From: Octopus vulgaris
Taxonomy: Eukaryota
NCBI GenBank assembly: GCA_951406725.2
Contig: OX597822.1
Span: forward strand, 93,372,001 to 93,436,000
DNA length: 64,000 nt
Reading direction: 5' to 3'
Shown: piece after piece, positions 14,901-44,223 of the stretch
Numbering within the stretch: position 1 is the first letter of the stretch
Layout: every line of letters starts with the position of its first letter
The notes under the pieces: model-generated
What the model was told of the DNA's origin: nothing
The model's input: only the letters and a program-made list of their open reading frames with translations
Database searches by the model: none
Position numbers and translations under genes: made by a program

Positions 14901-15008
14901 GGGTGGATGCTACAGCAGCTTGTAGCCCCAGGAGAACATCTTCTCCGGCTGGCTATTGACACACTTTCTGTGCCCTATCAGTATTTGCAAAGGGAAGCCA
15001 TCCTTCCC
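14901..15008 (-). ncRNA. Unassigned multi-stem motif, copy B
   Basis: Shares junction sequences and helices with 34969-35080 and 44070-44171; strand inferred from G-U pairs. Confidence 0.5.
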
Positions 15009-15035
15009 ATCATCGACCTAACGTGATACGCACGT

Positions 15036-16253
15036 ACCTGAGGATCATCAAATCTTTCCATGATGATATGCAAGGCACCATACAGCACAATGGTTTAACA
15101 TCAACCGCCTTCCAAATAAAAAACGGGGTAAAGCAAGGTTGTGCCCTTGCTCCTACATTATTTGGCATCTTCTTCTCACTGCTGCTGTCACATGCCTTTC
15201 AGACATCAGATGATGGAGTGTTTCTGCACAGTAGAAGTGACGGGAAACTGTTCAATCTCTCGTGTCTGCGTGTCAAGACCAAAATCAGAAGCGTCCTGAT
15301 CAAGGAGGTGCTATTTGCTAATGATGCCGCTCTGGTATCACACACAGAAGAAGCCCTACAAAGGCTCATCAACTGTTTTGAGCAAGCATATAGCGACTTT
15401 GGCTTAGTTATCAGCCTCAAGAAGACCAATATCATGGTTCAGGCTACATCGGACATCCCAAACATACATATTGGAGACTACAGACTACAGGAGGTGGAGA
15501 AGTTTACCTATCTTAGCTCTACCGTAACCTACAACCTATCCCTTGATGCTGAGCTCAATATACGCATTGGCAAGGCAGCTGCTGTGATGGCCCAACTCTC
15601 CAAACGGGCATGGGACAACAATAAGCTGACCAAGACCACAAAAATGAAGATTTACCAGGCATGTGTACTTAGCACTCTAATGTATGAAAGTGAGACTTGG
15701 ACGCCATACACACGCCAACAGCGTCGCCTGAATATCTTTCACCTGCGCTGCCTCCGGGAAATCCTTCGCATCAAATGGCAGAATCATGTCCGCAACAAAG
15801 ATGTCCTCATGCAAGCAGGAATATCAAGCATGTTTGCACTCCTCACACAAAGACGTGTGAGATGGCTTGGACATGTTAGCCGTATGGAAGATGGCAGAAT
15901 CCCCAAGGACATACTCTACGGAGAGCTTGCTAGGGGCACTAGGTCTGTGGGAAGACCGTTCTTACGATACAAGGATGTTTGCAAAAAGCACATGAATGCC
16001 TGCAACATCAATATTACCAACTGGGAAGCAGTTGCCAGCAACCGTGGAGATTGGCGATGTACCGTAAAAGAGGGAACACAACGAGTGATATAGAGAGAGA
16101 GGAGAAATGGAGAACAAGAAAAGACGTCAACAAGAAAGTATGACATTACAACCAGCCAGGCAAAGTCTTCGCTACATTTGCGGCACGTGCCAAAGGGAGT
16201 GTTTGTCCAGGATAGGACTACACAGCCACAGCAGGAGATGTATTAGGACATGA
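15036..16253 (+). pseudogene. 5'-truncated RTE-clade LINE reverse transcriptase
   Basis: GVKQGCALAPTLF; LFANDAAL (catalytic D changed to N); RVRWLGHVSRM; premature stop at 16093, then C-terminal CGTCQRECLSRIGLHSH zinc finger. Confidence 0.92.
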
Positions 16254-16679
16254 AATGTAAAAGCCTGACTAGATTATTTTATGACAGGAACTGAAACAAA
16301 TCAATCGTATATATATGTATATATGTAAGTGTGTGTGTGTCTTTCTCTCTGTGTTTCACCCTCATCACTGCTTCACAACTGCTGTTCATTTATTTACATC
16401 CACTTAACTTACTGGTTTCACAAGAACAAACTAATACAATAAGTACCAGGCTTATCAAATTAAAAAGCATTAGGCTGTCTCATATTTTTGGTTGCCCAAT
16501 CAGTTGTATCTATCAATTTATCTTTGTATGTGTGTGTGTGTGTATATCTATCTATCTATCTATCTATCTATCTATCTATCTATCTATCTATCTATCTACA
16601 CACACACACACACACACACACACACACACACACACACACACACACACACACACATATATATATATATATATATATATAT

Positions 16680-17962
16680 ATATAAAACCATAATGGGTGC
16701 CTTAACACCCAAATTTTAGTCATTTCTTTTTTGATCCAAAACTAGGTCAAAAGTACTGAATGGATCTTTATGAAATTTGGAAAGTATATTCTATGCATAA
16801 GGGCCATAACCCCCATGACAATTCTTATGTTTTTGCTGTTGAGGAAATTTTAACCATAGATATTAGACACAAATGAAGTAATATTTATAAAATTTCGTCT
16901 TCTTACAAGTTATAAAGACCCCTCCATGGGGACTTAACACCCACAATTTTGTCATTGTGCTCTTGGAAGCTGTAGGGTTACCCGAGCATTATTTCTAATT
17001 CAATGGTACAGCAATGTAACAGTTTGCTTTGACATACACTTACATTGTGATTTCTGCAATGTGCTGCATAAATTGTCAAGTAAATGAGAGGCATCTTTGC
17101 CTCCATTGATTCAGTTGCAAAGTGTTGAGTAAAGTTATTTGATTGCAGACCTCCTTTCAGTCTTTTTATTATCACTCGGTCACACATAGTCCCAGATGGC
17201 AACATTGATTTCAAGGCCTTCCCAGATGAGTGACTGGTTATTCAAAGACATTTATAGATTGTAAATTTATTTTGTCCAGTTACATATCAGTATAGTGATC
17301 ATTTGCAAACTCCAACTTTCATTTCTCCTTAGCCCTCACGTCAGACAGTTGTTAATGTTTTATTTCAGTTGGGTCACGCCCTTCCAATTGTTATAAATTT
17401 GTAATGCATCTTACTGCTGTGCCTGTCAGCTGGATGGTGAGGAATCCTACATTGGGAATGCTAACGACTAGGGTAATGTAGCTGACTGCTTATTGTGATC
17501 ATTCGTCTTTTGGTTTCCTGTAGCTTTGCTCTCTTTTACAAACCCAGTGAACATATATTTCCTATTTCTAAGAAATTCAAACAATAGATATAAGACCCAA
17601 GTAAAAAAGATTCCCAACAATTCAACTTCTCTGGTTGATATTAAGTTGCCCACCCCCAACAGGGGCCTTAACTCTCACATTTTAGAGCTCTATGACCTTC
17701 ATTTTTCAGGAGCAAAATCTTTTTAACAGGTTCAATAAAACTGGAATTTTGGAATATGCGCATAAAAATCACTAATATGGGATATATGTGGCACAATTAC
17801 AATTTTTTTTTGGGGGGGGGGGTGTAAAGAGGGAAATAACCCTCATCTGCAATTTTGATGAAATTCGAAACATAGATATTCCTGTTCATTAGAGAAAATA
17901 TAACAGAAAAGTCTAATTCTTCAATTGTATGTAACACGGGCAACGCCGGGTATCTCTGCTTG
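16680..17962 (+). mobile_element. Probable non-autonomous Helitron
   Basis: 3' end cacgggcaacgccgggtatctctgCTTG|T resembles the hairpin+CTAG end of 35428-35804; 5' boundary uncertain. Confidence 0.55.
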
Positions 17963-18305
17963 TATATATATATATATATATATATATATATATATACATA
18001 TATATACATGCACACATCTATATATATATATATATATATATATATATATATATATATATATATATATATATATACATATATATGCAATACAAATGTATTA
18101 CTTTTCAGTAAAGTATAGCCCCATAAGGGTAAAATTATACATATAAAAGTAGATATATGGTACAACAATAGCAATCGATATAAATACGACGCTATTGTAT
18201 AGCTTCACTGCGTATATACAAGCAAAGACGTGTGTGTGCAACAAACATGAAAAAAATTGTCTTACCTCTAGGAAGAACATTCAATAAATGGACAACCTAG
18301 AATCG

Positions 18306-18385
18306 GGTAACGCAGGACCGGTTTCAAACTCTTCAAATACTTTTGACAACGTAAAATTGATTAGTCTTCATCAGCTGCATTTACC
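18306..18385 (-). ncRNA. Minimal type-I hammerhead ribozyme, intact core
   Basis: gguaaaugcag-CUGAUGA-agacu...aguuu-GAAAC-cg-GUC-cugcguuacc: 10-bp stem I with one bulge, 5-bp stem II, ACCGGU palindrome. Confidence 0.88.
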
Positions 18386-42381: not shown

Positions 42382-42416
42382 GTTTCCGACGAAGAGCTCC
42401 GCTCGAAACGTTGAAC
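42382..42416 (+). ncRNA. Ultra-minimal hammerhead-like motif (variant core)
   Basis: guuu-CCGACGA-a-gagc-ucc-gcuc-GAAAC-GUU-gaac; same architecture as 20489-20526. Confidence 0.62.
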
Positions 42417-42546
42417 CCTCTTTCTTTCCTTCTTTCCTGAGCGTCCAATAATACTATATTTGTTCCACATCCTCGCGTTGTTGTGTTTTTTTGTGCTTTC
42501 ATGTTTGGATTAACTATATATATATATATATATGTGTGTTTATATA

Positions 42547-42709
42547 AGACGGGCTTCTTTCAGTTTCTATCTACTAAATCCACTCACACGGCTTTGATCG
42601 GCCCGAGGCTATAGTAGAAGACACATGACCAAGGTGCCACGCACTGAGACTTAACCTGGAACCATGTGGGTGAGAAACAAACTTCTTACCACATAGCCAC
42701 ATCTTCGCC
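42547..42709 (-). mobile_element. SINE S2 head
   Basis: Reverse complement of 33819-33980. Confidence 0.8.
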
Positions 42710-43352
42710 TCTCACTGTAAGTTAATATCATCAGGTGTATGTTACTATTTTAAAGGTGAGTCCCTATTTGAAATCGTACGCCAGTATCACAAAGAAGTGG
42801 AGCTCTCTGTCGGTCTAAGGTAATACTAGAAGGATGAGGCCCTTTCTGTCACTGTAAGTTAATATTATAAATCTAATGAAGGTGTGACACTGTCCCTCAT
42901 TGCAATTTAGTCCAGTGATGGTGTTGCCCTTTTTCTCATTGTAAGTCTATCTAACGGGGACGTGGCCCTCTCTGTCATTATAAACCAGTATTATAAAGAT
43001 GTGGCCATTTCTGTGATTGTAAATTAATATCATAAAAATATGGTCCTTTCTGTCACTATAAGTCAATTTTATAAAGACGTTGACCCCTTCATTGTCATTT
43101 AATCTAGTGAAGATGTGGCCCTTTTTTCTCATTGTAAGTTAATGTAATGAAAGCGTAGCCCTTTCTCTCATTTCAAGTTAATCTAATGAAGACGTGGCAC
43201 TTTCTGTCACTATAAGTTAATATTATAAAGATGTGTCCCCTTTCTGTCATTGTAAGTTAATATTATATAAAGATGTGGCCCTTTCTATCATCGTTATTTA
43301 ATCTAATGAAGATGTAACCCCTTCTGTCATTGTAAACTAATCTGGTAAAGAC
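42705..43352. repeat. Diverged ~40-42 bp minisatellite, about 15 copies
   Basis: gtggccctttctgtcattgtaagttaat(attataa/ctaatga)agat unit. Confidence 0.88.
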
Positions 43353-43899
43353 ACGTAGATGAAGTATGTCTAATATTTTATCTATGTTTTGTCTGATTTT
43401 ATTTCTCACCGTCATGGCTGTTAATTTTATTTACACATGGATAAATATCTTATTTGTCAATTTTCTCTCTCTCTCTTACTCTTATTATCATCTCTCTATT
43501 TTTTCATTCCTTGTATATGTATCTGTTTGTCTATCAATGTTTCATATGTATGTATGTATGTATGTATGTATGTATGTATGTATGTATGTATGTATGCATG
43601 CATGCATGCATGCATGTATGTATGCATGCATGTATGCATGTATGTATGTATGTATGTATGTATGTATGTATGCATGCATGTATGTATGTATGTATGCATG
43701 CATGCATGCATGCATGTATGTATGTTGGTAAGTGGTTAGGTAGGTAGGAATCTATATATCTGTCTGTCAGTCTGACTGTCTGTCTGTCTGGCTGGCTGTC
43801 TGGCTGTATATCTATCTATCTATCTATCTATCTATCTATCTATCTATATATATATCAATAATAATTCTCTAAAAGGAATATAGACAGTAACTGCTCGAC

Positions 43900-44223
43900 A
43901 ACATAAGGGACTAAAGCCATCTGAATATGGCTAGGGACAGGGCAGGGTGGTGGGGGTGTTACTGTTGCATTTCAGGCGAACATCGACGTCACCAGAAAGG
44001 CTCGACACCGTCACGGTGCCCTAAACCTGCAAAGGGAGGTAATTCCCCGATGAAGCGGAAACCACACACGGGGAATTACCTCCCTTTGCAGGTTTAGGGC
44101 ACCGTGACGGTGTCGAGCCTTTCTGGTGACGTCGATGTTCGCCTGGGGCTAAATGCAACAGTAACACCCCCACCACCCTGCCCTGTCCCTAGCCATATTC
44201 AGATGGCTTTAGTCCCTTATGTT
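43900..44223. repeat. Near-perfect ~150-bp-arm palindrome carrying unassigned motif copy C in both arms
   Basis: 43900-44048 is the reverse complement of 44070-44223 apart from a 5-nt indel; 21-nt spacer; abuts (TA)n. Confidence 0.95.

Follow-up and report, generated by a model that had tools for sequence, protein, structure and literature searches.

The window analysed here, a stretch of 64,000 nucleotides (nt) of Octopus vulgaris contig OX597822.1 (positions 93,372,001 to 93,436,000), contains several copies of an RNA motif built on two adjacent hairpins, H2 and H3. Judged from sequence, these copies are almost certainly 5'-truncated pieces of one tandem superfamily of non-long-terminal-repeat (non-LTR) retrozymes. 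The favoured reading, with a probability of about 0.6, is that the motif is the H2–H3 pair of a hammerhead-bearing non-LTR retrozyme of ~355 nt and likely part of a domain bound by a Penelope-like reverse transcriptase (RT). The initial annotation had presented it as a candidate novel ribozyme, folded as a junction closed by an imperfect stem (P1). Its view that the RNA is structured and under selection, and belongs to retroelements with (TA)n insertion sites, is borne out, but the proposed fold is wrong and the proposed role probably wrong, since the junction is a truncation artefact and a hammerhead is already present.

Copy A (34924..35091, minus strand) is a 5'-truncated retrozyme unit which, by alignment to the fuller copy L026, extends from +12 to +178 relative to the predicted hammerhead cut and has its 3' end at the first of two recurrent end positions (site 1). 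Its minus strand carries the 3' strand of a long hammerhead rod (35045..35091, comprising the 5' strand of the supposed P1 and CCCUUCGUA), whose partner strand has been lost in this copy, followed by H2 (35026..35044, GACAC/GUGUC) and H3 (34991..35023, AGCC...GGCU with an internal loop and an upper stem). Copy B (14818..15038, minus strand, −3 to +217), also a 5'-truncated unit, ends at the second position (site 2) on (TA)n, with H2 at 14958..14974 and H3 at 14924..14954 on the same strand; its 5' side adjoins an RT-coding long interspersed nuclear element (LINE) fragment on the opposite strand.

Copy C is the right arm of a fold-back insertion (44069..44225, plus strand, +22 to +178) and terminates on (TA)n, with site 1 as its 3' end. 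On its plus strand lie H2 (44098..44114), H3 (44116..44150) and the 5' strand of a further helix, arm 4 (44158..44165), which includes part of the 3' side of the supposed P1; in full units the partner of this strand lies ~65–75 nt downstream, and site 1 is enclosed. The left, mirror arm (43856..44071, minus strand, 0 to +220) has a 5-nt deletion in H3 and ends at site 2. A second fold-back, of family A, has its left arm at 1079..1160 (minus strand, +79 to +177, site 1) and its right arm at 1153..1286 (plus strand, +97 to +229, site 2), both on (TA)n. A short, weak 3' fragment of a related family (21809..21868, minus strand, 88% identical to C over 59 nt, E 0.005) runs from hairpin H5 to site 1 between (TA)n tracts.

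The motif positions first reported for B (14901-15008, minus), A (34969-35080, minus), C (44070-44171, plus) and the mirror arm (43952-44048, minus) all hold the motif, far above the level of a backward-read control, and the fold-back arms do point their 3' ends outward. The partial copy placed at 1114-1165 is real, at ~1079-1160 on the minus strand, but is one arm of a fold-back whose other arm had gone unlisted, as had the short fragment. The position before (TA)n applies to B and C, where the tract follows the motif end by 88 nt and 51 nt, but not to A, which has no (TA)n within 400 nt.

Retrozyme units in the octopus genome

Searches of the source genome (2.8 Gb, 227 contigs, microsatellite-rich) with A, B and C gave 45–50 scored matches each, at 91–100% identity, from 640–2,901 first-look candidates. 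Three motif patterns were found 1,033, 3,920 and, for the two-hairpin pattern, 10,560 times, against 0, 2 and 85 for the same patterns read backwards; these counts tally tandem units and mirror arms, not insertions. Each family is a unit of 342–362 nt, often arranged in tandem or as a fold-back, the fuller copies mostly ending on (TA)n. The GC content of the units is 42–47% (all seven monomers), one array extends for 1,657 nt before its locus ends, and no conserved long reading frame was seen in the retrozyme units. A, B and C, initially described as having largely different flanks, are homologous in register over ~260 nt, with a between-group identity of 42–63%, and additional families follow the same layout. 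Three (TA)n tracts (at L002, L066 and L076) hold retrozyme copies of differing families, consistent with the repeated use of one target.

The superfamily is an additional member of the already known metazoan non-LTR retrozymes (Cervera and de la Pena 2020, PMC7229834; Li, Clavereau and Pollet 2026, bioRxiv 10.64898/2026.07.22.740005). As the portions of these papers drawn on here describe them, such retrozymes share with the octopus families tandem units of a few hundred bases (350–390 bp in mussel, ~150–450 bp for the class), a GC content under 50%, a single type I hammerhead in each unit, the apparent lack of a coding frame, a highly self-paired predicted circle and the presence of Penelope-like elements (PLEs) in the genome. 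The class is further marked by the lack of LTRs, a primer-binding site and a polypurine tract, by self-cleaving transcripts and by linear and circular monomer RNAs. The octopus families differ in having a covarying multi-helix domain across families, fixed 3' ends and an asymmetry between fold-back arms, where the same portions give single-sequence folds or phylogeny. They also differ from those of Xenopus, for which 24 of 57 retrozyme families are given as matching known elements, nearly all of them PLEs; no homologous Penelope pseudo-LTR was found here among the 33 Penelope-type loci sampled. A literature search returned no paper on the motif, on cephalopod retrozymes or on animal retrozymes with a covarying domain; the supplement of PMC7229834, which may show other invertebrate folds, lay outside that search, the words 'octopus' and 'cephalopod' are absent from its main text, and one of the two supplementary files of PMC4209133 has no octopus entry.

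The family is also present in sequencing runs labelled as other organisms. At least 118 metagenome stretches and 41 viral contigs matched the motif pattern, but in none of these 159 did the fit to the profile extend past the pattern (best E 0.0015, over ~35 nt), and they were set aside as chance matches.

Hammerhead and fold of the unit

A type I hammerhead with at least five of six stem I pairs lies upstream of 102 of the 142 motif matches in loci L001-L090, its predicted cut falling 33–40 nt before the motif. Across all loci 164 of 230 copies had a hammerhead core where the spacing predicts it, and many of the copies without one there were truncated (judged by eye, without a count). Both-side changes affect all six pairs of stem I and all four pairs of stem II, and the core occurs with C3-G8, U3-A8 (7/164) and U3-G8. 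The U3-A8 form is a natural hammerhead covariation and the short palindrome that forms stem III is like that of hammerheads working as dimers, both as described in the part of PMC4209133 used here. The hammerhead is thus predicted from sequence and covariation. Complete copies therefore have a hammerhead of their own upstream, rather than a motif that sits where hammerheads sit; it could not be seen in the window because all six main pieces begin at or after the predicted cut (aligned 5' starts at +12, −3, +22, 0, +79 and +97). Hammerhead-core-like words also occur at window positions 29091, 13897, 31590, 35230 and 61652, and all failed the type I pairing test.

The upstream part of the unit also alters the predicted fold of the motif. 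When 26 copies that include it were folded, UYGYA paired with a strand 5' of the hammerhead at a mean probability of 0.97 (above 0.5 in 26/26), and the 5' strand of the supposed P1 likewise paired upstream of the hammerhead in 24 of the 26. P1 itself had a probability of 0.00 in every one of these copies and rose above 0.5 in three of 26 only when they were trimmed to window-like fragments. Its pairing in the C, B and A registers (58.1, 55.8 and 60.5% of cells) was equalled by 279, 500 and 470 of 500 shuffles. The CCCUUYGYA segment, first taken for a fixed single-stranded junction, is a strand of the rod helix, and in further families it changes together with its partner strand. The P1-closed junction thus appears in the window copies because truncation has removed the true partner strand, and 5'-truncated copies of this kind can mimic a closed, 'ribozyme-like' junction, which calls for caution.

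The structure comprising the rod, hammerhead, H2, H3 and H5 has 90.2% of 1,289 cells paired and double changes in 31 of 50 pairs; none of 500 shuffles reached it on four of five measures, and slid controls gave 29–51%. The domain of H2, H3, arm 4, H5 and H6 has 92.9% of 720 cells paired (24 copies) and double changes in 15 of 30 pairs, again reached by none of 500 shuffles. Alignment A1 omits L109, whose 3' end runs into TA, together with L110 and L045, which lacked either a rod start or a match, and alignment A2 omits L329 and four loci in which the full domain was not found by script. Arm 4 is ACAGUAAC/GUUACUGU in B and C and GCGGUGGU/ACCACCGY in A, with double changes in six of eight pairs. 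The earlier observation that both hairpins differ in sequence and still pair is upheld, H2 with 95% and H3 with 98–99% of cells paired; the upper stem of H3 has both-side changes in all five pairs, and a double change in H2 was found in L338 and in a contig from another organism. The sense strand first proposed is also supported, with 132 G-U against 41 A-C cells, and is the strand of the hammerhead.

Seven monomers folded as circles surpassed their block shuffles (15 for each) in stability by 3.5–11 standard deviations and were also more stable than their antisense strands. Five of them were star-shaped with H2 and H3 free, and two C monomers folded H2 otherwise, in what are single-sequence predictions. 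Conservation between groups is 75% in H2, 70% in H3, 62% in the hammerhead region and 30–48% in linkers, and is highest, at 80%, in the CCYUYGYA segment; for H2 and H3 this suggests protein binding or a tertiary fold beyond pairing alone. A pairing between the H3 loop and the 5' strand of the rod was glimpsed by eye; it is short and broken in several families.

Copy ends, transcripts and neighbouring elements

The 3' ends of the copies fall into two clusters 44–55 nt apart, at ~+171 to +178 (site 1) and +215 to +229 (site 2) from the cut. Site 1 is an unpaired stretch within arm 4 and site 2 lies just 3' of H6. In loci chosen by motif pattern alone, 28 of 44 ends fell at site 1, site 2 accounted for 12 and four lay elsewhere; the two classes account for 45 of 51 ends in family B2 and 44 of 50 in family C, one arm being forced by the query. 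Fold-backs whose two arms end at different sites, one at site 1 and one at site 2, make up 26 of the 32 resolved (14/18 in B2, 12/14 in C, the C set being motif-selected, as a 63-nt C-tail query gave no matches), and six more C fold-back loci ran off the edge and could not be scored. Both window fold-backs follow this rule of one site per arm.

The 5' starts are scattered, with no base used by more than 2/51 or 2/52 copies. As a proxy for cleavage, a pile-up of 5' ends was seen neither at the motif nor at the hammerhead, so this comparison has no power. In B2 copies (L344-L373), 25 of 51 5' starts lie at +21 to +100, where an RT would meet H3, H2 and the rod, which may reflect stalling or a mere length distribution. 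Arrays run through both the hammerhead and the motif, a result that a circular or an uncut multimeric template would permit.

Two fixed ends, inversion, (TA)n and 5' truncation together form the 'tail' footprint of Penelope insertions, and mobilisation of a Penelope type is, on this pattern, highly probable. Penelope-like insertions, as characterised in the sections of Craig et al. 2021 (PMC8557442) used here, likewise have 5' truncation, partial tandems, an adjacent inverted truncated copy, a tail at one end and (TA)n; they differ in a tail of 30–40 nt, as opposed to 44–55 nt here, and in having a reading frame. A similar plan is found in PAc, the Poseidon element of Anolis carolinensis, which has two adjacent internal starts downstream of its hammerhead, cuts AT-rich targets and extends both strands (Frangieh et al. 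2024, PMC11167929). The octopus units appear to share with it a hammerhead followed by a needed downstream region, two internal starts with an optional tail, AT-rich targets and the cutting and extension of both strands. PAc is autonomous, with starts 85–92 nt past the cut that lie in an AC-rich stem-loop of its reading frame, whereas the octopus units are apparently non-coding with starts at ~+175 and ~+220; the resemblance meant here is one of plan.

Candidate sources of such an enzyme are present in the genome: RT and GIY-YIG elements that contain 781-codon frames, terminate on (TA)n and have two ends. One family (L374:2664-5006, L375 and L376) has many 781-codon RT and GIY-YIG frames with an overlapping upstream frame of 333–479 codons and a long 3' region in which short tandem repeats occur, together with a UUGAUAA hammerhead (U3-A8) and two 3' ends ~35 nt apart. 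A second Penelope-type family (L378:3790-3855) has a CCGAAGA hammerhead core, the C-at-4 variant also present in retrozyme families A and C.

Contigs from four runs guessed to be RNA span the entire C unit, and contigs that wrap around are as compatible with tandem DNA as with circles (eight runs assembled as contigs). One contig of run X1 starts at −61 (L069:342) on the hammerhead strand and continues through hammerhead and motif; its loose end resembles a cDNA template-switch adapter with an extra G. This single contig is a hint of a transcription start at −61, a position that aligns with the junction of a LINE-like piece in family A. The piece, of ~2 kb, lies between family A copies at L131:1793-3836, L132:1936-4006 and L133:3670-5751, where it is 84–94% identical and has a basic reading frame without a Pfam match, and it also occurs at L003, L023 and L110. 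Its AATAAA-bearing 3' end joins ~64–67 nt before the hammerhead cut, and it is possibly a site-specific insertion into the retrozyme.

Four open frames of other mobile elements lie in the window, with names that we assign presumptively: a fragment resembling an RTE-type RT (14960-16093, plus strand), an endonuclease-RT LINE of 863 codons (26811-29402, plus strand), a mariner-type transposase (53199-54110, plus strand) and a DNA-transposase fragment (31891-32343, minus strand). The window further contains a perfect inverted repeat of ~57 nt (8527-8583 and 8665-8721) with (TA)n in its spacer, probably a small DNA-transposon-like element.

Role of the H2–H3 pair

By analogy with known retrozymes, tandem units would be transcribed and the transcripts cleaved by the hammerhead, which probably acts as a dimer because stem III is a short palindrome, and then circularised by a host ligase. 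The resulting circular RNA is predicted to be star-shaped, its central loop being surrounded by a long rod that has the hammerhead at its tip, by H2 and H3, by a closed arm 4 and by more hairpins. As in the anole element, a Penelope-like RT-endonuclease would nick both strands of (TA)n, and complementary DNA (cDNA) would start at site 1, in arm 4, and at site 2. Synthesis would then traverse H3, H2 and the rod in turn and would often halt before the hammerhead, leaving the motif without its ribozyme. That H2 and H3 form part of a handle for the RT is a slightly better than even proposition, favoured because the start sites lie next to the domain and a borrowed enzyme would find little else in the element. 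A bolder version, in which H2, H3 and arm 4 are a dedicated, shape-conserved handle for the telomerase-related Penelope RT, loading a dimeric enzyme at two fixed starts on one circular RNA, is put forward tentatively and is on balance doubtful.

Several observations weigh against the reading of a hammerhead retrozyme with an RT-binding H2–H3 pair. Among the sampled hammerhead cores, 109 of 164 are CCGAYGA, with C at position 4, a figure inflated by the over-sampled family C, to which most of them belong. The retrozyme unit was found in no sequencing run on record as RNA, no listed run being so recorded. H2 is mostly invariant, with four of six pairs that never vary, and so provides little evidence on its own pairing, and the shuffle tests overstate significance because the named structures were derived from the same, related sequences. 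H2 and H3 lie 60–120 nt from site 1, and the start sites are enclosed instead by arm 4 and H6. A GIY-YIG scan of the genome gave 6,136 first-look candidates, from which 30 loci and seven longer stretches were taken, with 33 distinct Penelope-type loci (36 locus records); the domain profile and the covariance model matched no ends of these 33, a small sample relative to the candidates. The sample included both of the Penelope-type families described above, with the 781-codon frames and with the CCGAAGA core, and gives no sign that H2–H3 mimics the RNA of a partner. L152, not Penelope-like in appearance, was excluded from the covariance-model search. Two domain matches near Penelope loci were rejected as separate retrozyme copies, the one at L378 being a B-type copy beyond the (TA)n end of that element.

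The position of the start sites in arm 4 and behind H6, and the lack of H2–H3 at the ends of the 33 Penelope-type loci, would also suit an arrangement in which element and fold are the same, H2–H3 is a scaffold or host-factor site serving circle stability, ligation, export or hammerhead folding, and the RT recognises arm 4 and H6 or the single-stranded starts only. The portion of PMC7229834 used here also reports retrozyme circles as highly self-paired. A scaffold alone would not need near-invariant H2 letters across groups that are 42–63% identical, and the true RT partner may merely be unsampled, so this arrangement is considered unlikely, if the most serious of the alternatives. Part of the conservation could instead be kept at the level of DNA, the motif serving as an upstream enhancer for the promoter of the next tandem unit. 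With a transcript start at −61, where the run X1 contig begins behind its adapter-like end, the motif would sit 190–260 nt upstream of the next start, the region occupied by distal elements of the small nuclear RNA type; CCYUYGYA, the best-kept segment, presumably takes an octamer-like form in B-type families. A, C and further families no longer have these letters, the contig is a single observation, and the G-U pairs, the 3–9 nt loop and the H2 double change in L338 indicate RNA, which together make an enhancer improbable.

That H2–H3 and its flanks form, beside the hammerhead, a second ribozyme of a new self-cleaving or ligating class, in line with the initial annotation, is more improbable still. 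Short helices with near-invariant letters, and a P1 that can form in three of 26 truncated or nascent-like RNAs, are what such a ribozyme might show, but the pairing of P1 does not exceed shuffles in any of three registers and the conserved letters lie within helices, not junctions. Ribozymes like that of hepatitis delta virus (HDV) fold as a nested double pseudoknot in the order P1-P2-P3-L3-P3'-P1'-P4-P2', with an unpaired catalytic C in J4/2. The likeness of the motif to them is limited to the superficial words CCUUCG and GGCUAA: the H2 loop of 3–9 nt leaves no room for P2-P3, the candidate L3 is a rod strand, and the candidate catalytic C, that of GCUAA, is paired in H3 (G-C in 22 and G-U in one of 24 copies), with U replacing C and G-U kept in L103, L329 and L340. 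A descriptor of the HDV order, run without a positive control, matched 0/26 copies on either strand and 4/104 shuffles, in agreement with the initial judgement that the motif is not canonically HDV-like, and no hammerhead-like core was found on the antisense strand of the 26 copies. The absence of an Rfam match, the models for twister, twister-sister, pistol, hatchet and hairpin ribozymes included, fits the unassigned status first given and held for five loci at the gathering score and for the full C unit at E≤10, though these scans missed the hammerhead of the element too, so that the blank is weak. A scan of the window at E≤5 gave 457 rows; among the best 150, nearly every row was a microRNA model, usually placed on a microsatellite. 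A separate scan of copy A gave two junk rows. Because a hammerhead whose stems and core covary is already part of the element, a second self-cleaving ribozyme is not needed; the motif is probably not a new ribozyme, and cleavage by it is improbable.

Mobilisation of animal retrozymes in trans by Penelope-like elements has been proposed in print, in the sources as drawn on here, with the mechanism not shown. As to the RNA features that a Penelope RT recognises, those of PAc were mapped only by truncation. If H2, H3 and arm 4 do form a dedicated handle that loads a dimeric enzyme, both nicked (TA)n strands would be extended at once, and the domain would correspond, in minimal form, to the part of telomerase RNA that binds its RT. 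The octopus superfamily, with many diverged variants of one short covarying RNA, near-exact start sites and a strict two-arm pattern, provides a ready assay substrate for this recognition.

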